Positions 22,302-60,190 of a DNA stretch of 64,000 bases are shown one piece after another. The DNA comes from Rhodospirillaceae bacterium (GTDB taxonomy: Bacteria > Pseudomonadota > Alphaproteobacteria > Rhodospirillales > CALINB01), in assembly GCA_038114465.1 (NCBI GenBank), contig JAYNQW010000004.1, positions 89,528 through 153,527 of the forward strand, given 5' to 3'. How positions within the stretch are numbered: the first letter of the stretch is position 1; each line of letters opens with the position of its first letter. A model generated the notes under the pieces. The model ran no database searches. It was not told the DNA's origin and saw only the letters and a list, made by a program, of their open reading frames with translations. The position numbers and the translations under genes were made by a program.

Positions 22302-22349
22302 TATTCGCTTTTCAAAAATTCTATTTGATCGCCGTTAAAAAAAACGTAT

Positions 22350-23024: not shown

Positions 23025-23117
23025 CTTTGGCTCCGAGCTGTAACGCGTTAACGGCTCCTGATTATAAGGGCTTTATAAGTAAACAAAGCGGATACAGTGT
23101 GACAAATTAATTCCGCA

Positions 23118-24447
23118 CTATTGTGCCGGTTTCGCAGGCCGCATAACTGCCTTAGCTGCCAATTTGCCCATGACAGCAAGAAGCGTAAACGCAGCAATAT
23201 CAACATCCCGCTCGGCCGACGCGGCATCACTCTCCGCGTTTACGAGGTTTGTCTCGCCGTTTAGTACATCCAACAAAGACCGCTTGCCCAATTTACGTTC
23301 TTTGCGAGCTAAGGTTAAAAATTCCGCCGCAATATTTGCCTGATTTCGCAATAACATGGCATTTTCACGTGCTGTATTTAAATTATCCCATGCATCACGA
23401 ACCTGTTGTTCAACTTTCCCCTTTGCATCGACATAACGGCCGGTCGCTGAATCAGCGCCTCTTTTTGATGCCCGAAGCGAATTTACGGCCGTAAAGCCGA
23501 GATTGAAGGGGTAAATAAATTGCACCATGCTGAGAAAGTCTTGTTCCCCACCCTAAAGTACCGCCGACATCCTTAGCAACTTTTGACTGCAATACTGCTT
23601 GAAACCGGGGGAAAAATTCATTTGCCCGCGTTAGATTGACATCTTCTTTCGAAATCAAGCTGGCAAAATGCGCGGCTTGCAGTTGCGGATTATGATCCAA
23701 TGCAATTGCAATAGCTTCCTTAATGCTTGAAGGCAACATATCACCGGGGAAGGCCGGTTTTACGAGTCCTTGATAACCAGGCGGTTCGGATTCAAAAACT
23801 TCCCGGTAGGCGTTGCGGGCAACCTTAAGATCACCATTGGCACGAACGCGGCGGGCTTGAGCACCGGCTAGCTGAACCTTCGCCTGCAAGACATCTGTCG
23901 ACAGCCCAGCGCCGCGTTTGACAAGGGCGTCTTCAAGTTCTGATTGCTTTTTGATGTTCTGTTCAGATTTCTGTGAAAACGAAAGAACATCATACGTACG
24001 GATCATATTGAGGTAAGCCGTAACGGATTGCAGTAACCGGTTTTGAATGGCTGCTGACAAGTTTGCGTTGGCTTGATCCATCGTCAAGCTCGCGGTGCAC
24101 ACTTGAGCATTCGTTGAGCCGAAATCCCATAAAAGCTGTGTAATGCTGAGATCTAATTGGCGGGTCGGCGCACGCGTATCAGCGCCGGGCTGAATTTGGC
24201 GTTCGTAGCCATATTGTGCATCGACATTTAACTGCGGGAACCAACCACCTAAAGCGACACGCGTCCGCTCACGCGCGGCGACCATGTCGGCTCTGGCAGC
24301 GTTGACCAAGTCATCTTTCTTCAAAAGACCCGGCACAAGTTCAGACAACGGTTTCGCCTGCGCAGAAACGCTTAAAAAAATTAAAGCTAAACCGGTTGCC
24401 AGCAAGCTTCGGTAGAAACTCGCTAAACCATTGGTAAATGTGGACAT
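23118..24447 (-). pseudogene. TolC-family type I secretion outer-membrane protein with a frameshift
   Basis: The N-terminal 331-aa ORF has a signal peptide (...LSVSAQA) and TolC repeats. The C-terminal 136-aa ORF is in another frame. TolC-like sequence switches frame near the G/C runs at about 23540..23556 (GGGTGGGG on the coding strand). Confidence 0.75.
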
Positions 24448-24702
24448 TTCCCGCCCTTATCGTAACGACACGGCACTGTACCACGGTATGCAATATTCAA
24501 AATATACGTAAAACCCACAAATTCCTTACTTTTATGAAATCGTGTTGCATTTCTACAACATCCTGAAATTGCACCACCAATTATGATACAAGCAATTGAT
24601 ATATAACAGGATTTTTTGCGACCGCCTTAGCGAAATACTAAATGCAACCTGACAGGGCTAGTCTCGGTCTCGAATCATACAAATTAGCTGCCCATCGAAA
24701 AT

Positions 24703-25719
24703 TTATAGCGTTCCCCATAATTGCGAATCGCGGTCTTCATCGCGCCAGACACCGGCTTCTTTACGCTCCTGGCGCCGCTTCGCGTGCCATCCTTTATAGG
24801 GCACATAATTGGGGTTCGACGGGGTATCGCTTTCAAGCATTTGCCGCGCAAGTTTCTTCGAGATCGGTTTGGGATTATCGCGCACGGAATAACCCCATCC
24901 TTTTAACAACGGACCAACAACGGCCTCTAAGGCTTCGCAATCACGGTCAGAAAGCCGTGTCTTATACATTTCACAATAATCGGTCGTAATCGGCTTCAAA
25001 ATGCTTGCGTGCAATGCATCGCCCCCACCCCAGTTTTTGGCCGAGTCCGACTGATGATGGTTCAGCATTTGCGGCGAATACTCTTCGCCAAGGAATTCAC
25101 AGAGCTTTCTTAATTCCTCTTCCGGCGCAGCACACAATTTTTCATAATGAATTTCATAATAAGAATTTGAATCCAGTTCCGCGCCTGATTCTTTAGCCGC
25201 CGAAACAAACATTTCCCACATTTGAGCGCCCGAATAAAGCGAGTAAGGCCAAAGCCGCGAGTCCGCAATATCAATTGCCATGTCCCGGCCATCTCGAATG
25301 ATATGTACAAACTGAGCGTCGGGGTAATCAGACTTAATCTCCTCCATCCAAAAACAGTTGCGAGGCGTCTTTTCACCCCAACGGGATTTTCCTGTGTCAC
25401 GCGCGTACTTACGGTGCAAAGCATCATAAAGCCCGGCAAACGATGGATCGGCCGATTCTTCAACCATTTCATCGGCCGATAACTGAGACGTCCAATCTTT
25501 GATGGATGGTGCCGCGAGAATATCTTCCGCCAGTGCTTTTAAATTAGCCTTATTGTTTAAATCGCCGTAGCTATAAAGATAAGGCCTCACCATTTCATAA
25601 AGCCATGCTGGCGACGGGACACCGATTCGCGGATGCGCATCCAAGATCAGCCGCATGAGCGTTGAGCCCGACCGGGGGGCACTCACAACAAAGATAGGTT
25701 TTTCACCAGTTACGGGCAT
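24703..25719 (-). CDS. Sulfotransferase family protein
   Basis: 338 aa from the ATG at 25719. PAPS 5'-phosphosulfate-binding loop VVSAPRSGSTLMRLILD. Confidence 0.75.
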   Translation of the reverse strand: MPVTGEKPIFVVSAPRSGSTLMRLILDAHPRIGVPSPAWLYEMVRPYLYSYGDLNNKANLKALAEDILAAPSIKDWTSQLSADEMVEESADPSFAGLYDALHRKYARDTGKSRWGEKTPRNCFWMEEIKSDYPDAQFVHIIRDGRDMAIDIADSRLWPYSLYSGAQMWEMFVSAAKESGAELDSNSYYEIHYEKLCAAPEEELRKLCEFLGEEYSPQMLNHHQSDSAKNWGGGDALHASILKPITTDYCEMYKTRLSDRDCEALEAVVGPLLKGWGYSVRDNPKPISKKLARQMLESDTPSNPNYVPYKGWHAKRRQERKEAGVWRDEDRDSQLWGTL

Positions 25720-25823
25720 TCGAATTCGTCCTCTCTGAGCCGGGTTGATTGCATAAGAATTTAGCGTTACCACCATTATAGCCACAGCATGGAAAAAACC
25801 AAATCGAGTCTAGGATCGTTGTT

Positions 25824-30856: not shown

Positions 30857-31504
30857 CTACTTTTTCGGGCCGAATCCCTTCTCGAAATGGGGCCCGCTCA
30901 TGGTGCCGTCGATGGCTTTACCGATGATTCCGTGGGATAAATCCTTCATGGCAATAAATATGACATCCTCTTTGCTGGTTGAAACCATCGTATGAGGCGC
31001 ATTTGCCGGGACGTATATCAACGTGCCAGCCGGAGCCAGCGATTTTTTCCCGTTAATCACACACCGGAGGGTGCCCTGAACCACGAAGTTGAACTGCTCG
31101 TTGGGGTGCGAGTGCATCCGCGAGCCAGTTCCACGGGGCTTGCGAATGTAGCCGATGAGCATCCGCTCACCCTCGACAACACCGCCGTGAGACGTGGAAT
31201 AACCTGTCCCCGCCGGAACTTTCTTAAGCTTGGCGAAGGGGAAATAATATTTACCGCGGCCGGCTTTAACTGCACCTTCGGTTTTCGTCTTACGGGACGA
31301 TTTTTTCTTCGCGGCTTTCCGCTTTGCCGGTTTTTTCTTAGCAGTCTTTTTTGCTGTTTTTCTTTTTGCCGGTTTACGGGCCGTTTTCTTCTTAGCCGGT
31401 TTTCTTTTTACGGAACGCTTTGCCGTTTTTTTAGCAACTTTTCTCTTCGACTTTTTCACCACTGTTTTTCTTTTTCTCGTCGTCTTTTTCGCTCGTTTTG
31501 CCAC
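30857..31504 (-). CDS. Cupin-domain protein with N-terminal histone-H1/AlgP-like Lys/Ala-rich tail
   Basis: 215 aa. GTG start 9 nt downstream of an AAGGAG SD. Residues 2-76 are K/R/A/T low complexity (AKKTAKRSVKRKPAKKKTARKPAKRKTAKKTAKKKPAKRKAAKKK). The C-terminal cupin has GTGSRMHSHPNEQFNFVVQG and GTLIYVPANAPH. Confidence 0.8.
   Translation of the reverse strand: MAKRAKKTTRKRKTVVKKSKRKVAKKTAKRSVKRKPAKKKTARKPAKRKTAKKTAKKKPAKRKAAKKKSSRKTKTEGAVKAGRGKYYFPFAKLKKVPAGTGYSTSHGGVVEGERMLIGYIRKPRGTGSRMHSHPNEQFNFVVQGTLRCVINGKKSLAPAGTLIYVPANAPHTMVSTSKEDVIFIAMKDLSHGIIGKAIDGTMSGPHFEKGFGPKK
31276..31501 (-). repeat. Lys/Ala-rich low-complexity coding repeat (degenerate AAG/AAA/GCx periodicity)
   Basis: Degenerate short repeats visible in the DNA (gccggtttt / ctttttgc units) encode the KKxAKK tail of the cupin gene. 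Confidence 0.7.
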
Positions 31505-36278: not shown

Positions 36279-37052
36279 ATGAAGCCGGTCCGTTCTGTCG
36301 AGCGCGCAATCGCTATTTTATTCCTGGTTGTTCAAAGCGACCGGCCGATGGGGCTTTCTGAAATTAGCCGGACCATCGGCCTCGACAAGGCAACGTCGCT
36401 GCGGCTTCTGTCCACATTGGCCTCGGCCAAACTTGTCCAACAGGACGCGATTACGCGACGGTATATGCCTGGAGCCAATATCTCGAGGTTATACAGTTCT
36501 TGGCGAAGCGATCTCCGGCATATCAGCCGGCCGCATTTGGAGCCGCTTTTACGCCAAGTTCAGGAATCTGTTTGTCTGGTTTGTCCGCGCGGCACCGAAC
36601 GGGTCACAATTGAAGCAATTGCCGCCTCCCATGAACTCTGCGTTGTCCCGGCCATTGGGAGCGCCGTGCCGATTTACGCCGGCGCATCGGGCCAAGTTCT
36701 TATGGCCTACTTGCCGGAGTCCGAGCGGGAACGCATTATCAAGGCGACAAACTTGCACCCGGTCGTTCCGGGATCGGGTTCGGATCGAAAATCATATCTT
36801 GCGAAACTTGAAAAAGTCCGTAACCAGGGCTTTGCTTACAGCATTGGCGATGTAACGCCGGGCGGCTCCGCTATATCAGCGCCGGTGTTTGACTCCGATG
36901 CAAACATTGTTGCCACTGTTGTGGTTCGAGGACCGCAAACACGGCTTATGGAAAAAGAGCTAATTGCAATGGCGCCCCATGTGATAAAGACGGCCAGCGA
37001 CATTAGTCAGGAATTAGGATATGGGCATTTGCAAAAAGCAGCGATGAGTTGA
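36279..37052 (+). CDS. IclR-family transcriptional regulator
   Basis: 257 aa. N-terminal wHTH (SVERAIAILFLVVQSDRPMGLSEISRTIGLDKATSLRLLSTL) plus a C-terminal IclR effector domain. Confidence 0.85.
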   Translation: MKPVRSVERAIAILFLVVQSDRPMGLSEISRTIGLDKATSLRLLSTLASAKLVQQDAITRRYMPGANISRLYSSWRSDLRHISRPHLEPLLRQVQESVCLVCPRGTERVTIEAIAASHELCVVPAIGSAVPIYAGASGQVLMAYLPESERERIIKATNLHPVVPGSGSDRKSYLAKLEKVRNQGFAYSIGDVTPGGSAISAPVFDSDANIVATVVVRGPQTRLMEKELIAMAPHVIKTASDISQELGYGHLQKAAMS

Positions 37053-37118: not shown

Positions 37119-38897
37119 ATGAAAATGACGACGGAAGAAGCATTTGTAAAAGTACTGCAAAGGCATGGTATCGAGCATGCTTTCGGCATTATCGGGTCGG
37201 CGATGATGCCGGTTTCCGATTTGTTTCCGAAAGCAGGTATTACGTTTTGGGACTGCGCGCATGAGTGCAATGCCGGAATGATGTCCGACGGCTTTACGCG
37301 CTCCAGCGGCAAAATGAGCATGATGATTGCGCAAAACGGCCCGGGCATTACGAACTTTGTGACACCGGTCAAAACTGCGTATTGGAATCACACCCCGCTT
37401 CTCCTCGTCACACCGCAAGCCGCGAATAAAACAATGGGCCAAGGCGGTTTCCAGGAAATTCCGCAAATGGCCGTGTTTGAAGACATGGTTTGTTATCAAG
37501 AAGAGGTTCTGGATCCGTCACGCGTCGCCGAAGTGCTCAATCGGGTAATTGAACAAGCATGGCGCGGCAGCGCACCGGCACAAATCAACGTACCGCGTGA
37601 TTTTTGGACGCAGGTCATTGATATTGAGTTGCCCGAAACGATTAAAATCGAACCATCCGCCGGCGGCAGCGCTTCTATTAAGGAAGCTGCCAAAATACTG
37701 TCGGAAGCTAAGTTTCCCGTAATTTTGAACGGCGCGGGCGTTGTCTTAAGCGGCGGCATTCCCGCTTCGGCCGCCTTAGCTGAGAAACTGAGCGCACCGG
37801 TATGTTGTGGTTATCAGCACAACGACGCCTTCCCCGGCAGCCACCCGCTGTCCGTCGGCCCGCTTGGCTATAATGGATCAAAAGCGGCTATGGAGCTCAT
37901 TTCCAAGGCCGACGTCGTATTGGCGTTAGGAACACGCCTGAACCCGTTTTCGACATTGCCCGGCTATGGAATTGATTATTGGCCGAAAGACGCCAAAGTC
38001 ATTCAGGTTGATATGAACGCAGACCGGATTGGCCTCACGAAAAAAGTCACCGTTGCAATCCAGGGTGATGCTCGGTTGGTTGCCGAGCAGTTAGCCAAAA
38101 GTGTCGCGCCTACAGCCGATAAGAAATCGCGCGAAGACCGCGAGGCCTTAATCCATCAAACCCGTTCGGCCTGGCAACAGCAACTTTCTTCAATGGATCA
38201 TGAAGACGACGATCCAGGCACGACATGGAATGAACGCTGCCGCAAACGCGAGCCCGAAAAAATGTCGGCGCGCATGGCCTGGCGGGCGATTCAAGCCGCC
38301 CTGCCGCAGGAAGCGATTATTTCATCCGATATCGGCAATAACTGCGCGATCGGCAATGCCTATCCGACCTTCGAAGAGGGCCGCAAATACCTCGCACCGG
38401 GCTTGTTCGGGCCATGTGGCTACGGCTTTCCGGCTATTCTGGGTGCGAAAATTGCATGTCCCGATACACCCGTCGTCGGATTTGCCGGTGATGGCGCATT
38501 TGGTATTTCCATGAATGAAATGACCGCCTGTGGCCGCGATCCGTGGCCGCCGATTACAATGGTCATTTTCCGCAACTACCAATGGGGTGCGGAAAAACGC
38601 AACACGACACTCTGGTTTGACGATAACTTCGTCGGTACCGAGCTCGATCTCGATGTCAAATATGCCGACATCGCCAAGGCCTGCGGAGTGAATGGCGTAC
38701 AGGTCAGCACCATGGAAGAGTTGACCGAGCAACTGGCTAAAGCGATCGATGCGCAAATGAAGGATAAGAAAACAACCTTCCTGGAAGTCTTGTTAAATCA
38801 AGAACTCGGCGAGCCATTCCGGCGCGATGCCATGAAAAAACCGGTCACGGTTGCCGATATCGATCCTAAAGATATGCGGCCACAGCAAACGGCTTAA
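37119..38897 (+). CDS. xsc: Sulfoacetaldehyde acetyltransferase (ThDP-dependent)
   Basis: 592 aa. The N-terminus MKMTTEEAFVKVLQRHGIEHAFGIIGSAMMPVSDLFPKAGITFWDCAHE... is one I recognise as characteristic of Xsc. ThDP motif GFAGDGAFGISMNE. This is recognition from memory, not a search. Confidence 0.8.
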   Translation: MKMTTEEAFVKVLQRHGIEHAFGIIGSAMMPVSDLFPKAGITFWDCAHECNAGMMSDGFTRSSGKMSMMIAQNGPGITNFVTPVKTAYWNHTPLLLVTPQAANKTMGQGGFQEIPQMAVFEDMVCYQEEVLDPSRVAEVLNRVIEQAWRGSAPAQINVPRDFWTQVIDIELPETIKIEPSAGGSASIKEAAKILSEAKFPVILNGAGVVLSGGIPASAALAEKLSAPVCCGYQHNDAFPGSHPLSVGPLGYNGSKAAMELISKADVVLALGTRLNPFSTLPGYGIDYWPKDAKVIQVDMNADRIGLTKKVTVAIQGDARLVAEQLAKSVAPTADKKSREDREALIHQTRSAWQQQLSSMDHEDDDPGTTWNERCRKREPEKMSARMAWRAIQAALPQEAIISSDIGNNCAIGNAYPTFEEGRKYLAPGLFGPCGYGFPAILGAKIACPDTPVVGFAGDGAFGISMNEMTACGRDPWPPITMVIFRNYQWGAEKRNTTLWFDDNFVGTELDLDVKYADIAKACGVNGVQVSTMEELTEQLAKAIDAQMKDKKTTFLEVLLNQELGEPFRRDAMKKPVTVADIDPKDMRPQQTA

Positions 38898-38910: not shown

Positions 38911-38952
38911 AAAAAAAGTAAAAGGCCGCGATCTGATCGCGGCCTTTTTTTT
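38911..38952. terminator. Bidirectional rho-independent terminator between convergent xsc and the dehydrogenase gene
   Basis: GGCCGCGAT (38924-38932), loop CTG, ATCGCGGCC (38936-38944). An A-rich run lies upstream and T8 downstream. Confidence 0.85.
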
Positions 38953-38969: not shown

Positions 38970-39929
38970 TTAAAGAATGTCTTTGTTCACGACCAAACTG
39001 GGGTCGAGCTTGCCGTCGAATACGGCTAAGACATTCCGCGCACAAACTTCCGCCATACGCTGGCCACACTCGACGGTAAACGCACCGCAGTGCGGAGAAA
39101 TGACAATATTATCGAGCTTAAACAGAGGGTTATTCGCCTCCGGCGGCTCAGGATCAAACACATCCAACGCCGCCGCAGCCAATTTGCCTGACGACAGGGC
39201 TTCACATAAATCACTTTCGTTGACCATGCCGCCTCGCGAGACGTTCACAATAAACGCGCCATCCTTCATGGTTGAAATTTCTTTTGCCGTGATCAAGTTT
39301 TCCGTTTCCGGTGTCTTCGGTACGTGGATGGAAACATAATCCGCATCCGGCAAAGCCTTGTGAAAGTCTTCAACCGGCTCGTAACCAGCTTTCTTCACAT
39401 CTTCCGCCGACACAAACGGATCTGAAATAAGCACCGTCATACCGAATGCCGCACACCGCTGTGCAACCTCTCGACCAATACGTCCAAAACCGGCAACGAG
39501 AACTTTCTTATTTAAGAGTTCCGTTTGCGAAAACGAATCGCGGATTTTGAAATTTCCATCCCGGGTCGCATTGTCATAGGCGACGAGTTTTTTCGCCATC
39601 GCCAACATCATTGCAAGCGTATGCTCAGCAACAGCTGTTGCGTTCACGTTACCAACCAAAGCCAGGGGTATTTTTCGCGCCGTCAATGCATCAACATCGA
39701 CCGCTTCATATCCGACGCCATGACGCGCCACAATTTTAAGGTTCGGCGCGGCATCGACAACCTCTTGGTTGATTTTCGTCATGCGTACGATGATGGCATC
39801 CGTTTCCGGAAGATGGTCGAAAATTTCCGGCACGTGCTCCGCTAATTCCGTAAATTCAACATCTGGTGCATCACGCAAAATTTGCAGCCCGGCATTGTGA
39901 ATTTTGCCGAGCACAAGAACTTTTTTCAT
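38970..39929 (-). CDS. D-isomer-specific 2-hydroxyacid dehydrogenase (SerA/GhrB-like)
   Basis: 319 aa. NAD fold VLVAGFGRIGREVAQR, and VNVSRGGMVNE ... ISPHCG catalytic region. Confidence 0.85.
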   Translation of the reverse strand: MKKVLVLGKIHNAGLQILRDAPDVEFTELAEHVPEIFDHLPETDAIIVRMTKINQEVVDAAPNLKIVARHGVGYEAVDVDALTARKIPLALVGNVNATAVAEHTLAMMLAMAKKLVAYDNATRDGNFKIRDSFSQTELLNKKVLVAGFGRIGREVAQRCAAFGMTVLISDPFVSAEDVKKAGYEPVEDFHKALPDADYVSIHVPKTPETENLITAKEISTMKDGAFIVNVSRGGMVNESDLCEALSSGKLAAAALDVFDPEPPEANNPLFKLDNIVISPHCGAFTVECGQRMAEVCARNVLAVFDGKLDPSLVVNKDIL

Positions 39930-39963: not shown

Positions 39964-40422
39964 CTAGCTGTCTTCGCCGGCGATAAAAGCACCGCTTTTT
40001 TTACCGTCGACGGCATCGCCGGCAACGTAATAACCAACATCTTTAGCTGCAAAATACACCGCATCTTCTTCATCGGTTGTCACGACGTAATGCTCTTCAT
40101 TCGCCGGGATATGGATCAGCTGACCGGGACCCGCGATTCCTTCCTTATCGCCGACCTTGTATTTTACTTTTCCCTTCAATACGAGATTGAATTGCTCATT
40201 AGCATGGGTATGCAAACGAGATCCCGTTCCTTTCGGTTTATTAACAAGAACGACTTGAAGCTTCTTGCCGCGAACGGCTGCACCGATTGAAGAAGAATAA
40301 TGAGGACCAATCATAAACTGATCCATGTCGCCCATATTGAACAGGCAATTATCGGCACTGGCCCGAGTTACCAGCTTGTCGGTTTCTTCGTGAATGTTTT
40401 CATATTTTTCTTCGTCACTCAT
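39964..40422 (-). CDS. Cupin_2 (KdgF-like) protein, tandem copy 3 (most divergent)
   Basis: 152 aa. GTGSRLHTHANEQFNLVLKG and GQLIHIPANEEH. Confidence 0.8.
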   Translation of the reverse strand: MSDEEKYENIHEETDKLVTRASADNCLFNMGDMDQFMIGPHYSSSIGAAVRGKKLQVVLVNKPKGTGSRLHTHANEQFNLVLKGKVKYKVGDKEGIAGPGQLIHIPANEEHYVVTTDEEDAVYFAAKDVGYYVAGDAVDGKKSGAFIAGEDS

Positions 40423-40437
40423 TGTTTGCCTCCCAAT

Positions 40438-40881
40438 TTAATCCGATTTAACACCGGGTGCGACATACGCACCGGTGTTCTTGCCGTCAACGGGATCGCC
40501 ATACATTAAATGCGACGTATCCTTCACGGCGTAATATTCAACATCGTTATCTTCCGCCGCGACCGTGTAATGAGGCGTATCGGCCGGAATATAAATTAAG
40601 GTACCAGGCGTCGCGACAGATTCCACATCACCGACGCGAACCTTCAGTTTTCCTTTTAATACGTAATTAAACTGCTCATTCGGATGGGTATGCAGTCTCG
40701 AACCGGTTCCCGGTTTTTTACGCACAACTGCAACTTGCACTTTGTTGCCTTCGACGATGCCGCCGCGGGCGGATGAGTAGTGTTCTCCGATCCCGAACTC
40801 TTCAAGATTGAAGAGATCGAAGAAACAGTTGCCATTCCCGGCTTTGTGAGAATGTTGATTAATTTTTTTATCTTCAGCCAT
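40438..40881 (-). CDS. Cupin_2 (KdgF-like) protein, tandem copy 2
   Basis: 147 aa. GTGSRLHTHPNEQFNYVLKG and GTLIYIPADTPH. About three-quarters of residues are identical to copy 1 by eye. Confidence 0.8.
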   Translation of the reverse strand: MAEDKKINQHSHKAGNGNCFFDLFNLEEFGIGEHYSSARGGIVEGNKVQVAVVRKKPGTGSRLHTHPNEQFNYVLKGKLKVRVGDVESVATPGTLIYIPADTPHYTVAAEDNDVEYYAVKDTSHLMYGDPVDGKNTGAYVAPGVKSD

Positions 40882-40923
40882 TGATTACTTACCTCAATCA
40901 TTAAAATGGTCGTTGACTTAGCA

Positions 40924-41361
40924 CTAACCGTCTTTGGGCTCGATATAAGCACCCGTGTTCTTGCCGTCGACCGCTTCGCCATGCATCAAATAAGACGTAT
41001 CTTTAATTGCGTAGTATTCAACATCGCCGTCTTGTGTCGCGACCGTGTAATGAGGAATATTCGCCGGGATATATACCAGCGTCCCCGCCCGGGCTAACCC
41101 TTCGACGTCACCGATCTTTACCTTGAGCGTTCCCTTGAGAACATAATTGAATTGTTCATTCGCATGCGTATGAAGCCGCGAACCTGTTCCCGGTTTTTTC
41201 CGAACGATCGCGACTTGGACCTTATCGCCTTCGACAATCCCGCCACGGCCCGACGAATAATTCTCGCCGATCCCGAATTCTTTAAGATTAAATAAATCGA
41301 AAAAACAATTGCCGTCGCCGGCCTTATAGGAATTTTGGTTGATTTTTTCTTTATCCGCCAT
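40924..41361 (-). CDS. Cupin_2 (KdgF-like) protein, tandem copy 1
   Basis: 145 aa. GTGSRLHTHANEQFNYVLKG and GTLVYIPANIPH. Confidence 0.8.
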   Translation of the reverse strand: MADKEKINQNSYKAGDGNCFFDLFNLKEFGIGENYSSGRGGIVEGDKVQVAIVRKKPGTGSRLHTHANEQFNYVLKGTLKVKIGDVEGLARAGTLVYIPANIPHYTVATQDGDVEYYAIKDTSYLMHGEAVDGKNTGAYIEPKDG

Positions 41362-41465
41362 TGGCCTCCCTTTTAATTGTTCTTTTTTTATAACAATAAA
41401 TTATTTTTTCCGATATCGCTACTTTCACGCTGCTACAGGCAAAAATAAAACCGGGTTTGCTTTTG

Positions 41466-42230
41466 TCACGCTTTATATTTTTTAGCCAAGGCCGCTGTTT
41501 CCCGGGAGAGTATGGCAAGGTCCGCACCAACACCGATATAAGCATACCCTTTTTCGAGACATGCCCGAATAAGGTCCTCTGAAGGCCATAATGTGCCTGC
41601 GGGCTTATTCACGGCCTGGCATTTGGCAAACCCCTCATCCAGTAGCGCTAATACATCCGGATGGGTCATTTGGCCGATCATGCCCATCTCGGCGGATAAA
41701 TCAGCGGGACCAAAAAAGAATCCGTCAACACCGTCGACGGCAGCAATTTCTTCAATATTGGCCAATCCTTTCTTCGACTCAATCTGCATTAACCGGCAGA
41801 TGGCTTCATCGGCCTCATGAACATAGTTTGGGTTCTTTCCAAACCGGTTGCCCCGCTGCATTAATGAGACGCCGCGGATCCCTTCCGGCGGATACCGGGT
41901 TGCTGCAACACATTCACGCGCATCATCGGCCGTTTCAACCATCGGAAAAACAAGCGACTGTGCGCCAGCATCCAGGAGCCTTTTCACAATCACGGGCTCC
42001 CGCCATGGCGGGCGCACTAAGGCTGAGCAGTCATTTTGCGCTAAGGCCTGAAGCTGACCGAGAACGGAAGCAATATCGTTGGGCGAATGTTCCATATCCA
42101 CACAGACCCAATCGAAGCCTGCATCGGAAAGAACATCGGCGACCCAATTACTGCAGAGCGTGCTCCACAGGCCGATTTGCTGCTCGCCCTTAATCAGTCG
42201 TTCTTTAAAACGGTTGGTAAACTTCGCCAT
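41466..42230 (-). CDS. HpcH/HpaI-family 2-keto-3-deoxy-acid aldolase
   Basis: 254 aa. GLWSTLCSNWVADVLSDAGFDWVCVDMEHSPND and RYPPEGIRGV are typical of HpaI/GarL/RhmA aldolases. Confidence 0.85.
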   Translation of the reverse strand: MAKFTNRFKERLIKGEQQIGLWSTLCSNWVADVLSDAGFDWVCVDMEHSPNDIASVLGQLQALAQNDCSALVRPPWREPVIVKRLLDAGAQSLVFPMVETADDARECVAATRYPPEGIRGVSLMQRGNRFGKNPNYVHEADEAICRLMQIESKKGLANIEEIAAVDGVDGFFFGPADLSAEMGMIGQMTHPDVLALLDEGFAKCQAVNKPAGTLWPSEDLIRACLEKGYAYIGVGADLAILSRETAALAKKYKA

Positions 42231-42253
42231 TTTTTAACTTTAGCCTAAAACAC

Positions 42254-42278
42254 CACAGCCCGGCAAAGCCGGGCTGTG
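42254..42278 (-). terminator. Intercistronic 11-bp GC-rich hairpin (attenuator/partial terminator or mRNA-stabilising element)
   Basis: CACAGCCCGGC-AAA-GCCGGGCTGTG between the amidohydrolase stop and the aldolase start. On the minus strand it is followed by GGTGTTTT. Confidence 0.4.
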
Positions 42279-42302
42279 AATGAAACGATAAAGTCAGAAG
42301 AC

Positions 42303-43625
42303 CTATTTATCCGCGATCTTCCAATCGAGATAATCTTTCTGAATGACCCGGACATCCTTGCCCGGCCGGCGGTCAACCATCAGTTGACCTTCTTTAAAGA
42401 CCATTTGAAGCTTTTTGCGGTCTTGCAGAATTTTAATGTTTTTCAGCGGATCGCCATCCACAACGACGATATCGGCAAGCTTTCCTTTTTCGAGGGTGCC
42501 GATTTCATCTTCCATATGCAGCGCTTCGGCGGCGTTTTTCGTTGCCGTCATGATCGCGTCCATCGGTTTCATGCCAAGATCGGTATAAATTTCAAGCTCA
42601 TAAGCATTAGTACCGAAGCCCGGTTCGTAACCCATGTCCGTACCCATGGCAATTTTGACGCCGCTTTCGTACATCACTTGGAAGGTGTTGAAGCAATCCG
42701 GTTGAATCCGTTTCATCTTCACCAAGATAAATTCTGCCGTACCGATTTCCCGGCGGATATCGATGGCATGGTCCGTGCGGTGTGCCAAGGTCGGCGTCAC
42801 GGGGACTTGTGCATCGACAATGCGGGCAATCGAGTCGTCATCATGAAACACCATATGCTCAATCGTATCGGCGCCGGCTTTCAAAGCCATCCGATGGGCA
42901 TCCGGTGTAAAGCAGTGAATGGAGGCAAAATGCTCAACGGCATGCGCTTCATCGACCACGGCGTCGAGCTCTTCTTGCGTATGGTTACGAACGGTCGGCT
43001 CTTCTTTATCGGTGCCGCCGCCACCCGAAGCACAGGTTTTGATCCAGTCACAGCCGGTGAGCAGATTTTTCCGCGCCAAACCGCGTAAGGCATCGGCACC
43101 GTCTGCCGTCGTTCCCGGCGGGCGAATCGCCGCACGCGGCAGGATGAGATCCAAGTGCGAGCCCGTGCCGACGGCAAAGGCACCAATCACGAGACGGGGA
43201 CCAGCCATAACGCCATTATTAATAGCATCGCGAACCGCGCACATTTCCTCCGTCACGAGGCCCCACGGGGTGATGAAACCGAGGTCACGCAACGTCGTAA
43301 AGCCCATTTCCAAGCAGAGTTGAGCATGAAACAGTGCATAAAGTTGTTGCAGCTGCGGTGTAATTTCCCATTGCGCAACGCGGTAATTATTAAAAGTTAA
43401 ATTATTAAACATGCAAAGATGGATATGAAGATCCATCATGCCCGGCATCAATGTCGCTTTCGGCACATTAATAACCTCAGCACCTTTCGGCACCTTGACT
43501 TTGCTGGCGGGACCAACAGCTTGAATTTTTTTGCCTTTAATTACGATGACAGGGTTCTTAACGACTTCGCCTCCGTTGCCGTCAATTAATCGCCCACCTT
43601 TAATAACTGTTACATTAGCCGCCAT
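42303..43625 (-). CDS. Amidohydrolase-superfamily metal-dependent hydrolase (COG1228-like)
   Basis: 440 aa. N-terminal beta-sandwich IKGGRLIDGNG and the H-x-H metal motif PGMMDLHIHL. Confidence 0.8.
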   Translation of the reverse strand: MAANVTVIKGGRLIDGNGGEVVKNPVIVIKGKKIQAVGPASKVKVPKGAEVINVPKATLMPGMMDLHIHLCMFNNLTFNNYRVAQWEITPQLQQLYALFHAQLCLEMGFTTLRDLGFITPWGLVTEEMCAVRDAINNGVMAGPRLVIGAFAVGTGSHLDLILPRAAIRPPGTTADGADALRGLARKNLLTGCDWIKTCASGGGGTDKEEPTVRNHTQEELDAVVDEAHAVEHFASIHCFTPDAHRMALKAGADTIEHMVFHDDDSIARIVDAQVPVTPTLAHRTDHAIDIRREIGTAEFILVKMKRIQPDCFNTFQVMYESGVKIAMGTDMGYEPGFGTNAYELEIYTDLGMKPMDAIMTATKNAAEALHMEDEIGTLEKGKLADIVVVDGDPLKNIKILQDRKKLQMVFKEGQLMVDRRPGKDVRVIQKDYLDWKIADK

Positions 43626-46918: not shown

Positions 46919-48388
46919 ATGAAACCGATGAACCTGCTTTTCATCATGTCGGACCAGCACAGCAACAAAATTTTAGGGTGCCACGGCCATCCGATTATCA
47001 AAACGCCTCATATGGACCGGCTTGCCGAACGAGGAACACGGTTTACCGATGCCTATTCCCAATCACCGGTCTGTGTACCTGCAAGAGCTTCCATCGCGAC
47101 GGGCTTGTATGTTCACGAAAACAAAAATTGGTGTAACGCCCATTCTTATACCGGCGAAATCAAGGGGTGGGGACACCGGCTTCAAGAGGGCGGCCATCAT
47201 GTGCTTTCGATTGGCAAGTTGCATTATCGCAACGAGACCGATCCGACAGGGTTTGATGAACAAATCATCCCCATGCATGTTGTCGAAGGGGTCGGCGATC
47301 TGTTAGGATCCGTTCGTGATCAAATTCCCTTACCCGTACGCCATAAAGGCAAAACGCTGAGCGAGCGTATTGGCCCCGGTGAATCGACATATACGAAATA
47401 CGATAGCGATATTACAGAAAAAACCTGCGGTTGGCTGAGAACGGAGGCGCCTAAACATCAAGATAAACCATGGTGCCTTTTTTCTTCCCTTGTTTGCCCC
47501 CACCCGCCCTTCATCGCACCACCGGAATTTTACGCGCTCTATAATCCGGAAGAAATGCCGTTCGACAAAGGTGTTGGTGATGAAGATTTCAAACGCCACC
47601 CCTGGGTCGAGGAGCAACGCAATTGCCAATTCTTCGATCAGCATTTCAGGAATGAAACGCGCAAAATCGCCATTGCCTCTTATTTCGGCACGACATCGTT
47701 TTTCGACGATAATCTTGGAAAAATCATGCGCGCCCTGGAAGAAACGGGACTCGATCAAAGCACCCGGGTCGTTTACACGAGCGACCATGGTGAGAACCTC
47801 GGCACCCGCGGGCTATGGGGCAAATCCAACTTATACGAAGAACCCGCCGCCATACCGATGATCATTGCCGGACCGGATATCCCCGAAGGCCATGTCTGCA
47901 CCACCCCGGTTTCTCATGTCGATTGTTACCAGACAATCCTTCACGGGGTCGGTTTGCCCCTAAACGATAAAGAAAAATCGATGCCGGGCCGGTCGATGTT
48001 TGAAATTGCTTCTAATCACAATGACCCCGAACGCATTGCTTTCTCCGAATATCACGCCATGGCAGCGGCAACCGGCGCGTTCATGCTGCGCAAAGGCCGC
48101 TATAAACTAATTTACTATGTTGATTACAAGCCTGAATTATTTGATTTGGAAGCTGACCCGGAAGAAACCATCAATCTTGTAAGTGATCCGGCGCACAAAG
48201 ATACGCTGAGTGATATCGAGCAAGAATTACGCAAGATTATCAACCCTGAGAAAACTGACCGGGAAGCCAAAGCTAGCCAAGCGGCCATCATTGAAAAACA
48301 TGGCGGACGCGAAGCCATTATTCAACAAGGGGGCTTTGGAAATACCCCGGCACCCGGGGAAAAACCAGTATTTGCGGCTGGTCCGTAG
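46919..48388 (+). CDS. Cys-type sulfatase (formylglycine-dependent), no signal peptide
   Basis: 489 aa. LLFIMSDQHS metal site and SPVCVPARASIATG (C-x-P-x-R). The N-terminus has no hydrophobic leader. Confidence 0.85.
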   Translation: MKPMNLLFIMSDQHSNKILGCHGHPIIKTPHMDRLAERGTRFTDAYSQSPVCVPARASIATGLYVHENKNWCNAHSYTGEIKGWGHRLQEGGHHVLSIGKLHYRNETDPTGFDEQIIPMHVVEGVGDLLGSVRDQIPLPVRHKGKTLSERIGPGESTYTKYDSDITEKTCGWLRTEAPKHQDKPWCLFSSLVCPHPPFIAPPEFYALYNPEEMPFDKGVGDEDFKRHPWVEEQRNCQFFDQHFRNETRKIAIASYFGTTSFFDDNLGKIMRALEETGLDQSTRVVYTSDHGENLGTRGLWGKSNLYEEPAAIPMIIAGPDIPEGHVCTTPVSHVDCYQTILHGVGLPLNDKEKSMPGRSMFEIASNHNDPERIAFSEYHAMAAATGAFMLRKGRYKLIYYVDYKPELFDLEADPEETINLVSDPAHKDTLSDIEQELRKIINPEKTDREAKASQAAIIEKHGGREAIIQQGGFGNTPAPGEKPVFAAGP

Positions 48389-48512
48389 ACCCTATTTTTG
48401 CCACATTTTTAAGGCACTCTTGTTGAATACCGCTTCTTTCGTTACTAATAGAGACGGTATAAAACCGGATAACAATAAAATAAATATCATCACGCAATAG
48501 GGAGGAAATCGA

Positions 48513-49553
48513 ATGCGATTTTCATTAAAGACGACAGCTAAATTAAGTCTTGTCGGCTTCGCCGGCTTGGCTTTGATGGGCGGCACCATGGATGCTGCGC
48601 ATGCTTGGAAGCCCTCGAAAAAGCTCGAAATTGTAACTCATGTAGCAACCGGTTCTTCGACATACGCTTTTGCAAAAGCCGTCGAAAAATCGATCAAGAA
48701 ACAACTTAAACATGGTGTCAAAGTGACCTCGATCCGCGGTGCACGCGGCGACCGGGCTCGCCGTCATCTGCGCATCAAAAACAAAGGCAATAATCACATG
48801 ATGCAAGTGATTACGCCTTCGCAGGTTAACAACCCCATTCTCGCAGAACAAAAAACGCGTCCGTGGCACTTTGAGCCGCTGGCCGTTATGGTTGTAACCC
48901 CGCTTTTGTTTACGGTGAATGCCAAAGAATCCCGTTTTGGCAAAGGACCGTACAAATCGATGAAGCAGGTTTTTGACATCGCCAAGAAGAAACCGATGAA
49001 ACTTATCCATGGCGGAAACTCCATGGGTACGGTGGCATCCCTCGTTCATATTATGATCGAGAAAGAACTCGGCATTAAAATGACGTTCACGCCGTTTGAA
49101 TCCGTCGGCATCACAGAGCTGCTGGGTAACCACATTGATTTCATCATGCAAAATCCGGCGCAGGTCAATAACTTGGTCAAAGCCGGCCGCTTTAAGATTC
49201 TCGGCGCTTCCGAGAAACTCGGCGGCTACCCGAATGTTAAAACCTACGCCGAACAAGGCTTCAATTTTAAAGTCTTGAAACAGTATCGCGGTTTGTGGAT
49301 GCCGAAAGGCGTGTCAAAAGAAGCCATCAAATACTGGATGGCCGCTTTGCAAAAAGTTCGCAAGGATAAAGATTTTGTAAACTATGTTACGAAAAACAAT
49401 CTGACAGCTGTTTGGACACCTCGTGCCAAGCTTGCAAAAATGCTTAAAGAAGAATTCGACGCCTATTGGGAACTTGATCACAAGCTCAACCTGATCGGTA
49501 AGAAGATCAAAAAAATGGGCAAAAAGAAAAAGAAGAAAAAGAAAAGCAGTTAA
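48513..49553 (+). CDS. Orphan Bug/TctC-family periplasmic solute-binding protein with poly-lysine C-terminus
   Basis: 346 aa. GGGAGG SD, signal peptide ending AAHA, and a C-terminal GKKIKKMGKKKKKKKKSS. Confidence 0.75.
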   Translation: MRFSLKTTAKLSLVGFAGLALMGGTMDAAHAWKPSKKLEIVTHVATGSSTYAFAKAVEKSIKKQLKHGVKVTSIRGARGDRARRHLRIKNKGNNHMMQVITPSQVNNPILAEQKTRPWHFEPLAVMVVTPLLFTVNAKESRFGKGPYKSMKQVFDIAKKKPMKLIHGGNSMGTVASLVHIMIEKELGIKMTFTPFESVGITELLGNHIDFIMQNPAQVNNLVKAGRFKILGASEKLGGYPNVKTYAEQGFNFKVLKQYRGLWMPKGVSKEAIKYWMAALQKVRKDKDFVNYVTKNNLTAVWTPRAKLAKMLKEEFDAYWELDHKLNLIGKKIKKMGKKKKKKKKSS

Positions 49554-51997: not shown

Positions 51998-52804
51998 TTA
52001 CGCGCCCTGGCTATCAACAAATTTTTCCAATTCAATTGTCGATTCGACAGAAACAAATCGGGCAGGCCCTTCAGTAACTTTTAATGAAATTTTGCTGCCT
52101 TTTGGAATCTCAATAACATCATCACGGCTACATTGCTGGCAATCGCCGTCAACACTGACTTCAAGACCGCCCCGCACCAGATAAATGAACCGTTCATGTT
52201 CACTGGTATGCAGGGGTTCTTCATGTCCCATGGGCATATCGCAAAAGCCAAAATTTAACCGTTCGCCCATGACACGGCGGATGGTTTTGGCCGAATTTGC
52301 CGGCGCGTCGAAGGAATCTATAATGTTGTAATAGGGTGTCCCAAAACCATCGAAAATGGCCGTGGATTTCTCCGGGTCTTTTTCTTCACCGGGCCATTCA
52401 CCCTTGGCATGTTTCGCCCAGACTTCTTCTTCGACAGGCGGTGCATCCGGCAGCGGCTCATCAACGGCGGCGCCCACCATCGACCACGTCGGCTCTTTAA
52501 TCGCGAGATAACACATATCCCCTTCTTCGGCGGCTTTGAGCTGATGCTGCGCGCTCGGCGGCACATGCATTAGTGTTCCCGGCATGATCATGCGGCGATC
52601 CTTGCCGCACAAAGCATTCGCTTTTCCTTCAAGGATGAAGATCATGTAATCATTAGGGTGATAATGGGCTACCGATCCCGTGCTGGTTTCTTTTCGAACG
52701 TGCGCAAAGTAAATATATTTTCCGACGATTTTTCGAGTTTGCCCCGTAGACAAATGAACCGCACGCGTCCGGGCTTCATAGTTTTCGAACCGGTGAAATG
52801 TCAT
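51998..52804 (-). CDS. Bicupin protein (same subfamily as the single-domain cupins), copy B
   Basis: 268 aa. The N-domain has STGSVAHYHPNDYMIFILEG and GTLMHVPPSAQH. The C-domain has LHTSEHERFIYLVRG. Confidence 0.75.
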   Translation of the reverse strand: MTFHRFENYEARTRAVHLSTGQTRKIVGKYIYFAHVRKETSTGSVAHYHPNDYMIFILEGKANALCGKDRRMIMPGTLMHVPPSAQHQLKAAEEGDMCYLAIKEPTWSMVGAAVDEPLPDAPPVEEEVWAKHAKGEWPGEEKDPEKSTAIFDGFGTPYYNIIDSFDAPANSAKTIRRVMGERLNFGFCDMPMGHEEPLHTSEHERFIYLVRGGLEVSVDGDCQQCSRDDVIEIPKGSKISLKVTEGPARFVSVESTIELEKFVDSQGA

Positions 52805-52841: not shown

Positions 52842-53639
52842 TTATTGATCGATTTTTTCTTCCAAATACGGCATCGAAATAACGGATGCGTAACGAACAG
52901 GTCCTTTCGTTACTTTAGCGGAAAATTTACTCCCTTTCGGAATCTCTAAAACGTCGCCGGGCTCACACGATTTGGCCTCACCGGCAATATATGTCTCCAA
53001 ATGTCCATTAATGAGATAGATAAATTCCTCATGGTCCGTTTTAGGACGCTCGATTTTAGTACCCTCCGGCATATCAGAAAACTCGAACGCGAGCCTCTGC
53101 CCCTCAACCCGCCGAATTCGATTTAATGAAATCGATGGCGCATCAAACGAATCAATCACCGGATAATAACAATGATTTAACCCGTCGAGTATCGCGGAAG
53201 ATTGTTCAGGATTTTTTTCACCGCCCGGCCACTCCCCGGCGGCATATTGCTTAGCGACGTCTTCAACATCCGGCGCCTTATCTGGCAGAGCCTCATCTTC
53301 AGCAACACCCACCATCGACCAGGTTTGGTCTTTAATATAAAGATATTGCATATCTTCTTCTTCGGTTGCCTTAACGGAATGACGGGCGTTTGGCGGAATA
53401 TGAACGAACGTGCCCGCGGGAACCACACGGCGATCCCGACCGACGACGATATTCGCCTTTCCTTTGATGACGAAAACAAGCAATTCGTTGGGGTGATAAT
53501 GAAGCTCTGAACCGGTGCCCGCGGCCTTTGTGACATGGCAAAAGAACATGTACTGGCCTTCAATTTTACGGTTCTGTGCCGTTGTTAAGTGAATCGCGTG
53601 GGCGCGTGCTTTATAATCTTCAAACCGGTGGTATGGCAT
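52842..53639 (-). CDS. Bicupin protein, copy A (tandem paralog)
   Basis: 265 aa from the ATG at 53639. That start (MPYHRFEDYKARAH) aligns with MTFHRFENYEARTR of copy B. GTGSELHYHPNELLVFVIKG. Confidence 0.75.
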   Translation of the reverse strand: MPYHRFEDYKARAHAIHLTTAQNRKIEGQYMFFCHVTKAAGTGSELHYHPNELLVFVIKGKANIVVGRDRRVVPAGTFVHIPPNARHSVKATEEEDMQYLYIKDQTWSMVGVAEDEALPDKAPDVEDVAKQYAAGEWPGGEKNPEQSSAILDGLNHCYYPVIDSFDAPSISLNRIRRVEGQRLAFEFSDMPEGTKIERPKTDHEEFIYLINGHLETYIAGEAKSCEPGDVLEIPKGSKFSAKVTKGPVRYASVISMPYLEEKIDQ

Positions 53640-53791
53640 AGAATGATCACTCCCTTTCACCGCTCATCATATACTCCTTTTAATCGATCGCAAATCCTGC
53701 GCCATATGCACATGGAACCCATCGGCAAAAAAACCGCATGATATAAACAAATTTTGCGTTTAAATTTAGATATTTAGTATACGCAGGCCGG

Positions 53792-54831: not shown

Positions 54832-54866
54832 AATTCCTTTCAATTTTAATCAAATTGAATGGAATT
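54832..54866. promoter_or_regulatory. Imperfect 15-bp inverted repeat upstream of selA
   Basis: AATTCCTTTCAATTT-TAATC-AAATTGAATGGAATT (one mismatch), about 90 bp upstream of the selA ATG in an AT-rich 390-bp spacer. Confidence 0.25.
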
Positions 54867-54954
54867 TTATATTTGTGATTCGACTTGCTTGACGATCCAA
54901 GTGATGAGCCCTAGCTTACACACGTCTCATAAACCGTCGGGACCGTGTGTACCC

Positions 54955-56388
54955 ATGACTTCCTCCAAAGCCGCTTTGGCTACCATCCCTTCTGTCGATG
55001 CTATTCTGAGATTGCCGTCTATTGAAGCGCTCATTGACACCCATGGGCGAGCGCTTGTAACCGATGCAGCACGGACGACACTTTCGGACCTTCGAAAAAA
55101 AATAACGGCAGAAAACGAATCGTCACAAATCGCCACGGACGAAGAATCGATATCGGCGGTGATATCAAGATTGTTGAAATCGTGGTCCGAACCCAGCTTG
55201 CAAAATGTTTTCAATCTTACCGGCACGGTCCTGCATACAAATCTCGGCCGGGCTTTGCTACCCGAAGTCGCCATCGATGCCATGGTGGCGGCCGGCCGGC
55301 AAGCATCCAACCTGGAATTTAATCTCGCAACCGGCAAGCGCGGCGACCGGGACGATCACTTCAACGAAATTATTTGCCGCTTAACGGGGGCTGAAGACGC
55401 GACGGTTGTAAACAACAATGCCGCCGCTGTCTTATTATGCTTAAACACTTTGGCTCTTCGTAAGGAGGTGCCTGTGTCGCGCGGGGAATTGATCGAAATC
55501 GGCGGATCGTTCCGCATGCCCGATATTATGAGCCGGGCGGGCTGCAAACTGATTGAGGTCGGCACGACAAACCGGACCCATCTGAAAGACTTTGAAGGCG
55601 CAATCAACGAACGGACGGCGCTTTTGATGAAGGTTCACACCAGCAACTATGCCATTGAGGGTTTCACCAAGGCAGTGCCTGAAAAAGAATTGGCCTCTCT
55701 CGCGCACAAAAACGATATTCCGTTTATCGTCGATTTGGGTAGCGGCACCCTGACTGATTTAACCCAATTCGGCCTACCGCACGAACCGATGGCCCAGGAA
55801 ACATTCGCTCAAGGCGCAGATGTCGTAACTTTCAGCGGTGATAAGCTTCTCGGCGGCCCTCAAGCCGGCATTATCGCCGGGCGGGCCGATCTGATCGCAA
55901 AAATTAAAAGCAATCCGATGAAACGGGCGATGCGACTCGATAAAGTTACGATTGCCGCCCTCACCGCCGTGCTGCAGCTATATTTGAATCCCGAAAAATT
56001 AGCGGAACGCTTGCCGACAATTAGATTACTTTCGCGGCCCCAGGATGAAATCAATAAACTTGCTGTTCAAGTACAACCGCATTTGCAAGATTGGCTTGGC
56101 CCCGATTTTCATACCACCATTGAGGATTGCCACAGCCAAATCGGCAGCGGCTCCCTGCCCTTGGCAAAACTGCCAAGTGCTGCTCTCGTTATTCGTTCTA
56201 AGGAGGGCAAACGAAAATCGGGTGCCTTGATGCGCCGTCTTGCCGATGCTCTGCGGAAACTCCCCTGCCCGGTGATCGGCCGCATTCAGGACAATGCGTT
56301 ATGGCTCGATCTGCGCTGTCTTGAAGATGAAGAAGGATTTGCCGCTCAGCTTTCCGCCAAACATGTTCCCATCGAGACGCAATCATGA
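54955..56388 (+). CDS. selA: L-seryl-tRNA(Sec) selenium transferase
   Basis: 477 aa from the ATG at 54955. IPSVDAILRLP N-terminus and the PLP-lysine motif FSGDKLLGGPQAG. ATGA overlap with selB. Confidence 0.9.
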   Translation: MTSSKAALATIPSVDAILRLPSIEALIDTHGRALVTDAARTTLSDLRKKITAENESSQIATDEESISAVISRLLKSWSEPSLQNVFNLTGTVLHTNLGRALLPEVAIDAMVAAGRQASNLEFNLATGKRGDRDDHFNEIICRLTGAEDATVVNNNAAAVLLCLNTLALRKEVPVSRGELIEIGGSFRMPDIMSRAGCKLIEVGTTNRTHLKDFEGAINERTALLMKVHTSNYAIEGFTKAVPEKELASLAHKNDIPFIVDLGSGTLTDLTQFGLPHEPMAQETFAQGADVVTFSGDKLLGGPQAGIIAGRADLIAKIKSNPMKRAMRLDKVTIAALTAVLQLYLNPEKLAERLPTIRLLSRPQDEINKLAVQVQPHLQDWLGPDFHTTIEDCHSQIGSGSLPLAKLPSAALVIRSKEGKRKSGALMRRLADALRKLPCPVIGRIQDNALWLDLRCLEDEEGFAAQLSAKHVPIETQS

Positions 56389-58322: not shown

Positions 58323-58350
58323 ATGCCGGGAAAAATTTTGAATGAATTCA

Positions 58351-60178: not shown

Positions 60179-60190
60179 CCTTAAGCTACC

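Follow-up and report, generated by a model that had tools for sequence, protein, structure and literature searches.

Three adjacent cupin genes in the window

The 64,000-nt stretch analysed here (the window), positions 89,528 to 153,527 of contig JAYNQW010000004.1 from a Rhodospirillaceae bacterium, carries three consecutive genes for small single-domain cupins on its minus strand, which are called cup1, cup2 and cup3. The array is made up of an ancient pair of two cupin types, A and B (cup2 and cup3), together with a later, retained second copy of the A type (cup1). The three genes are as follows.

40924..41361, minus strand: cup1, 145 aa, A-type cupin, the second A copy; motif HTHANEQ, C-terminal tail shortened; Pfam Cupin_2 score 56.6 bits
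40438..40881, minus strand: cup2, 147 aa, A-type cupin; motif HTHPNEQ; Cupin_2 score 61.3 bits
39964..40422, minus strand: cup3, 152 aa, B-type cupin with a longer N-terminus; motif HTHANEQ; Cupin_2 score 54.1 bits

The coordinates of the open reading frames (ORFs) agree with an earlier note on this DNA, which had read three minus-strand genes of these lengths separated by 42 bp (cup1-cup2) and 15 bp (cup2-cup3). Each gene has a Shine-Dalgarno-like site (GGGAGG for cup1 and cup3, GAGG for cup2), and none ends in TGA, the stop codons being TAG, TAA and TAG, respectively. At the protein level the identity is 78% between cup1 and cup2, 52% between cup1 and cup3 and 51% between cup2 and cup3, which is close to the estimate by eye of about three-quarters for the first two and a much more divergent third. 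The tblastn E-values among the three copies range from 1e-43 to 1e-77, a similarity far above chance. Both motifs quoted in the note, GTGSRLHTH[AP]NEQFN and G-x-L-x-x-IPA-x-x-x-H, were found in all three translations. All three proteins score 54-61 bits against Pfam Cupin_2 (PF07883), for which the cutoff is 27.2, and thus belong to the cupin superfamily. The AlphaFold model of cup2 (predicted local distance difference test score, pLDDT, 87.9) is all-beta and contains one confident single cupin barrel.

Both intergenic gaps are multiples of three, so that the three genes share one reading frame. SelA (selenocysteine synthase) and SelB (the selenocysteine-specific elongation factor) are encoded at 54859..58322 of the window, and a fusion of the three products by stop-codon readthrough or selenocysteine insertion was therefore considered. 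It was ruled out by the TAG, TAA and TAG stops and by the frame relation, which is not conserved in related loci (the cupin-cupin gap is 14 bp in locus L084, 41 bp in L001 and 11 bp in L002). For these reasons the common reading frame looks like a coincidence. As to the selenocysteine genes themselves, ARAGORN detected no tRNA-Sec in the 64-kb window, Rfam found no RNA family there, and no candidate selenoprotein gene was identified.

Copy number and phylogeny of the A and B types

A family alignment was built and used for a hidden Markov model (HMM) census of every recovered locus. Seventy-nine loci were recovered from one-genome-per-species contigs and further contigs were obtained by exact-protein look-up; all recovered loci come from metagenome-assembled genomes (MAGs) or metagenome assemblies. 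Neighbour statistics were calculated on 78 loci. In the census a run of three copies was confined to the window and L086, a contig of the same species (SRR25455802; 99-100% identity). The operon of the sister lineage (L083-L085, 81-86% identity) is built alike, in the order amidohydrolase, HpcH aldolase, cupin, cupin, dehydrogenase, and has two cupins, one A and one B. Two cupins are also found in the more distant Rhodospirillales loci L002, L003 and L005, where they are an A copy and a truncated A copy. Hence the cassette between the HpcH and dehydrogenase genes reads A'-A-B in the window, A-B in L083-L085 and A-A'' in the L002 lineage. In Nitrospinota and unclassified MAGs (L001, L006-L008 and L010) adjacent A-B pairs stand in unrelated gene surroundings, L087 also has an adjacent cupin pair, and about 65 other loci carry a single copy. 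The A and B types also occur apart: L002, L003 and L005 have A-only cassettes, and B-only singletons are found in the Nitrospinaceae loci L013, L014, L016 and L021.

The second cupin of the L002 lineage (L002, 10462..10845; L005, 9677..10060) is a 127-aa A-type protein without the Y-S-S segment and without the VDG tail at the C-terminus. It is a fast-evolving A copy and not a B, with 60-67% identity to cup1 and cup2 and 44% to cup3; the B type is missing there. Purifying selection on it persists (dN/dS 0.07 between L002 and L005, where dN and dS are the nonsynonymous and synonymous divergence).

Phylogenetic analysis placed the three window genes in two clades. The B clade (100% bootstrap) unites cup3 with the second genes of the pairs in L084, L001, L006-L008 and L010 and with the single-copy Nitrospinaceae genes, and the A clade (90% bootstrap) unites cup1 and cup2 with the first genes of those pairs. 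In keeping with this, cup3 is 86% identical to the B gene of L084 (L84_B) and 71% to L1_B, of Nitrospinota-type MAGs, compared with 51-52% to its neighbours cup1 and cup2. Thus the "tandem triplication" proposed in the earlier note did not hold, as the three copies form no single clade and cup3 groups firmly with genes of other phyla. We concluded that the triple is a lineage-specific copy-number variant of a conserved cupin pair and not a new kind of system.

The age of the second A copy was considered separately. L84_A, the only A gene in sister locus L084, is 85% identical to cup1 and 81% to cup2; cup2 is also 72% identical to L2_A. In neighbour-joining (NJ) bootstraps the trio of cup1, cup2 and L84_A was monophyletic in 94%, and cup1 and cup2 were joined to the exclusion of L84_A in 0 of 200 replicates. 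Sites polarised with an outgroup gave four shared-derived states for cup1 and L84_A, one for cup1 and cup2 and none for cup2 and L84_A, which is a weak count. Unique derived changes number eight in cup1, six in cup2 and one in L84_A, and the cup1 set includes P67A at the residue after the second His. These data weakly suggest that the A duplication occurred no later than the split from the L083-L085 lineage, and that this lineage probably lost one A copy.

Selection and residue conservation

To the duplicate's age the substitution data add a second line of evidence. Between cup1 and cup2 the proportion of synonymous differences (pS) is 0.74, that is, synonymous saturation, which means that the duplicate is old and is not being homogenised; recent gene conversion between the two genes is ruled out by the same value. 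The cup1-cup2 dN (0.143) also exceeds that of the neighbouring genes compared between the window and L084 (0.075-0.119). The dN/dS ratios are low throughout: 0.047 for cup1-cup2, 0.062 for cup2-L84_A and 0.028 for cup3-L84_B.

The three proteins belong to a small, uncharacterised Cupin_2 subfamily, the hallmarks of which are Y-S-S, G-x-G-S-x-L-H-x-H-x-N-E-Q, I-P-A-x-x-x-H and K-D. Residues H64, H66, N68, E69, Q70, H104, K120 and D121 (cup2 numbering) are invariant in 95 of 95 single-domain members, cup1, cup2 and cup3 included. A and B are each fixed for a different residue at nine positions, and at two of these (R54N and V81Y) the change alters charge or size within the barrel. At six of these nine positions both cup1 and cup2 match the A consensus; cup1 departs from it at 124, 127 and 130.

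A degenerating duplicate or pseudo-enzyme among the three is ruled out by the dN/dS of 0.03-0.06 and the retention of all invariant residues, and all three genes look functional and under strong purifying selection, as judged from their sequences. The view of them as retained, intact paralogues is therefore upheld, with no metal-ligand residue lost. The pattern named beforehand as telling against that view, orthologous loci with a single cupin combined with relaxed selection or ligand loss in the extra copies, was not found, since two cupins are present at the syntenic orthologous loci and the extra copy has a dN/dS of about 0.05 and intact ligands.

Genomic context and natural fusions of the family

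In 25 of the 78 loci an amidohydrolase orthologue of about 65% identity is found no more than 6 kb from the cupin, mostly directly upstream and co-directional. This prolidase/carboxypeptidase-type amidohydrolase is the conserved family-wide genomic partner of the cupin. A COG0523/CobW-type GTPase metallochaperone is near the cupin in 23 of the 78 loci (L028, L034, L040, L062 and L070 among them), a count that covers true CobW-type proteins and leaves out antisense ORFs of GC-rich genomes. Many MAGs of Burkholderiales and Alphaproteobacteria have it beside the amidohydrolase and cupin genes; none is present in the window. The adjacency fits a metal-dependent enzyme module and suggests metal delivery to the amidohydrolase or the cupin. 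TctC receptors, too, are repeatedly found beside the family cupins, as is a related bicupin. The HpcH and dehydrogenase genes are additions to the unit in the Rhodospirillales group.

A profile search of the whole library (1.8 billion cluster representatives) returned 59 clusters at E<=1e-30 and 439 at <=1e-10, and among the best matches were natural two-domain fusions of the cupin family, which indicate that domains of this family can pair. Both HxHxNEQ sites are intact in the fusions P0038-P0040, and one site is degenerate in P0042, P0043, P0045, P0050, P0052, P0053 and P0061. In P0038 and P0039 both halves are closest to the lineage of cup4, a fourth single-domain paralogue in the window (see below), so these are not A-B fusions. 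A Rosetta-stone fusion of A with B was accordingly rejected, as the fusion halves come from other family lineages; generic support for domain pairing remains. In the literature, no paper was found that links a cupin with Xsc, with an amidohydrolase and COG0523, or with HpcH, amidohydrolase and TctC.

Operon partners and neighbouring genes in the window

The genes and features around the array are listed below.

42303..43625, minus strand: amidohydrolase (COG1228, prolidase/carboxypeptidase type); Amidohydro_1 E 3e-40
42253..42279, minus strand: GC-rich hairpin of 12 pairs between the amidohydrolase and HpcH genes; consensus match only
41466..42230, minus strand: HpcH/HpaI-type class II pyruvate aldolase, 5' of the cupin genes; Pfam HpcH_HpaI E 2e-45, nearest solved structure HpaI (2v5j, E 1e-70)
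41362..41465, minus strand: AT-rich spacer of 104 bp upstream of cup1, a possible internal promoter region for cup1-cup2-cup3-dehydrogenase; two weak promoter-like matches
38970..39929, minus strand: D-isomer-specific 2-hydroxyacid dehydrogenase, final gene of the unit; 2-Hacid_dh_C E 9e-60, PDB relatives PGDH, McyI and glyoxylate reductase
38920..38948, no strand assigned: bidirectional terminator-like hairpin between the dehydrogenase gene and the convergent xsc; 13-bp stem, T runs on both sides
37119..38897, plus strand: sulfoacetaldehyde acetyltransferase (Xsc), convergent with the cupin unit; TIGR03457 928 bits (cutoff 676), NF005713 1025 bits (cutoff 620)
36279..37052, plus strand: IclR-family regulator 5' of xsc; recurs beside cupins of this family in 8 loci
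30857..31504, minus strand: cup4, fourth single-domain paralogue, of the main single-copy clade, adjoining TctCBA; the cupin is residues 69-215 of the maximal ORF
51998..52804, minus strand: bicupin 1; N-terminal domain related to the cupin family
52842..53660, minus strand: bicupin 2; N-terminal domain related to the cupin family, with homologues beside the family's cupins in many loci

Pfam and NCBIfam scans confirmed the flanking genes named in the earlier note, an HpcH/HpaI aldolase, a D-2-hydroxyacid dehydrogenase and an upstream amidohydrolase, all on the minus strand. Its count of six cupins in the window was likewise correct, these being cup1-cup3, cup4 and the two bicupins. The PDB relatives of the amidohydrolase are 2qs8 (Xaa-Pro dipeptidase), 3mtw (Cc2672, an Arg carboxypeptidase) and ochratoxinase. 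An attempt to assign a pathway from the three partner enzymes failed: the aldolase, the dehydrogenase and the amidohydrolase each score below every NCBIfam equivalog cutoff, and their closest solved relatives are generic. The position of the dehydrogenase is kept in L002, L005 and L083-L086, and the adjacency of xsc to the cupin unit in L002, L083 and L086.

With regard to transcription, the hairpin at 42253..42279 may be an internal terminator or attenuator. The promoter scan 5' of cup1 gave matches no better than expected from shuffled sequence, and no riboswitch or leader was found 5' of cup1 with Rfam, which had no match elsewhere in the window either.

Other neighbours in the window are a PhyH dioxygenase, an NadB/Frd-like flavoprotein, TctCBA with cup4, and an enzyme of the L-arabinonate dehydratase type (985 bits against a cutoff of 882). 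The xsc gene has no adjacent phosphate acetyltransferase gene; a phosphate acetyltransferase domain is encoded only once in the window, 21 kb away, where it forms the C-terminal part of a MaeB-type malic enzyme (16004..18364). Compared with the syntenic MAG locus L002, the window has an insertion at 46919..49553, between a TPR protein and a 560-aa thiamine diphosphate enzyme, consisting of a choline-sulfatase-like sulfatase (under the equivalog cutoff) and an extra TctC receptor. The sulfatase is a further sulfur-related gene of the island.

Several observations concern other parts of the window. An amidase gene (5952..7253) is directly followed by a gene for a nitrile hydratase alpha subunit (7265..7912), and neither a beta subunit nor an activator was seen in the scanned ORFs. 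ARAGORN called an 86-nt tRNA-Arg(gcg) at 9367..9452, inside an RraA-like ORF (9002..9739); it was not in Rfam at the gathering threshold and is probably a false positive. A type-I-secretion-like set at 19547..25785 comprises an HlyD-type adaptor, an ABC exporter and two OEP fragments (23118..24447), the outer-membrane factor being apparently split into two ORFs, and it adjoins a sulfotransferase (24703..25785) and a 2-oxoglutarate-Fe(II) oxygenase (22350..23024). The GC content, about 0.50 before, is down to 0.41-0.43 over 58001..64000, where 61506..63287 encodes a phage-type integrase (DUF6538 and Phage_integrase); this region may be the edge of an integrated element.

Proposed function and alternative explanations

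From the gene structure, paralogy, phylogeny, selection, residue conservation and neighbourhood statistics, all directly observed, we infer metal binding, catalysis, divergent specificity and a pathway as follows. The reading that we favour, tentatively and with a probability of roughly 45%, is that the three cupins are separate, individually active and diverged mononuclear-metal enzymes of an uncharacterised Cupin_2 subfamily. Each would bind a divalent metal through His64, His66, Glu69 or Gln70, and His104 (cup2 numbering), and would most likely be a dimer by analogy with other small cupins. The substrates would be small oxo- or hydroxy-acid intermediates, arising downstream of or alongside the amidohydrolase reaction, with each cupin isomerising, tautomerising or decarboxylating a related 2-oxo- or hydroxy-acid. 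Substrate or stereochemical preference would have diverged between the A and B types, as the nine fixed A/B differences suggest, and less strongly between the two A copies. In the order of the route the amidohydrolase would act before the HpcH aldolase, and the 2-hydroxyacid dehydrogenase after it. As the unit sits beside Xsc in these Rhodospirillales, the route there may handle an organosulfonate, and the cupin unit of this lineage may belong to a route that yields sulfoacetaldehyde.

Several points weigh against this reading. The family has no characterised member and no literature link was found, so the catalysis, the metal and the substrate are what we infer. The divergent specificity is deduced from nine fixed differences at the sequence level. 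The tight A-B spacing (15 bp in the window, 14 bp in L084, 41 bp in L001) and the recurring fusions fit hetero-dimerisation equally well. The Xsc link is confined to one Rhodospirillales group, and the amidohydrolase-cupin core is found in many genomes without Xsc.

A hetero-oligomer is the alternative in which A and B cupins, with cup1 as an alternative A subunit, together form the functional enzyme in the manner of an unfused bicupin. We regard it as rather unlikely. It would account for the retention of A-B adjacency across unrelated contexts and phyla (the window, L083-L085, L001 and L006-L010) and for the very short gaps, which are compatible with translational coupling; the many proteins in which two family domains are fused show that the domains pair physically, and family-related bicupins lie close by in the window, as they do in many loci. 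However, A and B do not always co-occur, and the B-only Nitrospinaceae loci and the A-only L002 and L005 argue against an obligate hetero-oligomer. Moreover, the family is mostly single-copy and presumably homo-oligomeric, the known fusions are not A-B, and both types keep the full set of invariant residues, unlike heteromers built of a catalytic and a scaffold subunit. An elaboration would join this idea to the context: the amidohydrolase-cupin core, often with COG0523, would be an undescribed catabolic module built into an organosulfonate route in marine-type Rhodospirillales, in which HpcH releases sulfoacetaldehyde for Xsc, the A and B cupins are an unfused "split bicupin" isomerase or decarboxylase and the second A is an alternative specificity subunit. 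As a whole this scheme is a long shot. If instead the second A copy were a redundant duplicate kept for dosage, the number three would have no mechanistic meaning beyond the A-B pair. The confinement of three copies to one species-level lineage, the A-consensus residues that cup1 and cup2 both have at six of the nine positions and the varying cassette composition among close relatives are in line with this, but the duplicate is old (saturated pS, and a dN above that of the neighbouring genes), NJ never joined cup1 with cup2 to the exclusion of L84_A, and the two strongly constrained copies have nevertheless acquired eight and six lineage-specific derived residues, against one in L84_A, which fits divergence better. 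Dosage is therefore improbable.

Two further explanations would give the cupins another role altogether. That they are non-catalytic ligand-binding or regulatory proteins, like stand-alone AraC-type sensor domains, could be read from their Pfam AraC_binding scores of 32-41 bits, above the gathering threshold of 21.1; such cross-matches are usual for Cupin_2 proteins. They have no DNA-binding domain, the His/His/Glu-Gln/His set and K-D are invariant across 95 members, the genes are embedded between enzyme genes and the family is linked to a metallochaperone, which makes a sensor highly improbable. The earlier note had called the cupins KdgF-like, and as KdgF orthologues they would linearise 4,5-unsaturated uronates. 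They do have the H-x-H-x-x-E-Q motif and the distal His (HTH[AP]NEQ and IPAxxxH, invariant in the 95 members), and KdgF is among the weak PDB matches of the family profile. Its E-values, however, are 4.9e-4 to 9.6e-4 (22-23 bits), behind more than 40 other cupin entries and far from the best ones (YxaG at 2.4e-12 and OxdC at about 1e-11, within a range of 2e-12 to 2e-11). In a Foldseek search with the AlphaFold model, in which the top matches were all cupins, KdgF ranked 45th. Pfam and NCBIfam scans of the longer ORFs of the window found no match to uronate, pectin or alginate genes, and a polysaccharide lyase, kduI/kduD, kdgK/kdgA and a uronate transporter are absent from those ORFs and from the recurrent neighbours in the 78 related loci. 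The likeness is thus limited to the local motif, with profile, fold, length (see below) and context all in disagreement, and orthology to KdgF is scarcely credible.

The tandem array is a fairly ordinary kind of enzyme-gene expansion. Separate, diverged enzymes remain our preferred reading. If true, it would add an uncharacterised cupin subfamily to the catabolic accessory enzymes, and the single gene, tandem pair, triple and fused bicupin would form a natural series for studying the origins of bicupins. The amidohydrolase-cupin adjacency, often with the COG0523 GTPase, and the placement of xsc in one lineage point to an undescribed pathway and are a more useful lead than the triple.

Comparison with known cupins

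KdgF (5fq0, 5fpx, 5fpz) shares with the window cupins the single-domain Cupin_2 fold and H-x-H-x-x-E-Q with a later His. It differs in size, its chains being minimal cupins of 110-114 residues and those of the window 35-40 residues longer, and the window proteins have conserved N-terminal Y-S-S and C-terminal K-D...G..VDG extensions that set them apart from it. The ligand assignment, made from the motif position and by reference to the KdgF structure, makes a mononuclear site of the same type plausible in the window cupins by analogy.

The dimethylsulfoniopropionate (DMSP) lyases DddK, DddQ and DddW are comparable in being small cupins of marine bacteria that act on an organosulfur substrate, as the window unit adjoins xsc; DddQ ranked 36th in the Foldseek search. 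They differ in that no DMSP or acrylate genes lie by the window cupins and no specific sequence match was obtained. The Ddd motif is H-x-H-x4-E-x-Y, compared with H-x-H-x2-E-Q in the window cupins.

The best fold matches were Sthe2323 (4e2g), TM1459 (1vj2) and TTHA0104 (1v70), with Foldseek E-values of about 2e-7 and a target template-modelling (TM) score of 0.8. These are dimeric metal-binding minimal cupins, about 20-24% identical to the window family and without its terminal extensions. The best sequence-profile matches in the PDB were two bicupins, the quercetin 2,3-dioxygenase YxaG (1y3t, 2h0v) and the oxalate decarboxylase OxdC (1j58). In contrast to the window cupins they are fused two-domain proteins, their similarity is distant and the details of their metal motifs are different; nothing here points to dioxygenase or decarboxylase chemistry. 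What YxaG and OxdC do illustrate is the series from monocupin through tandem pair to fused bicupin, and the window family also shows this series.

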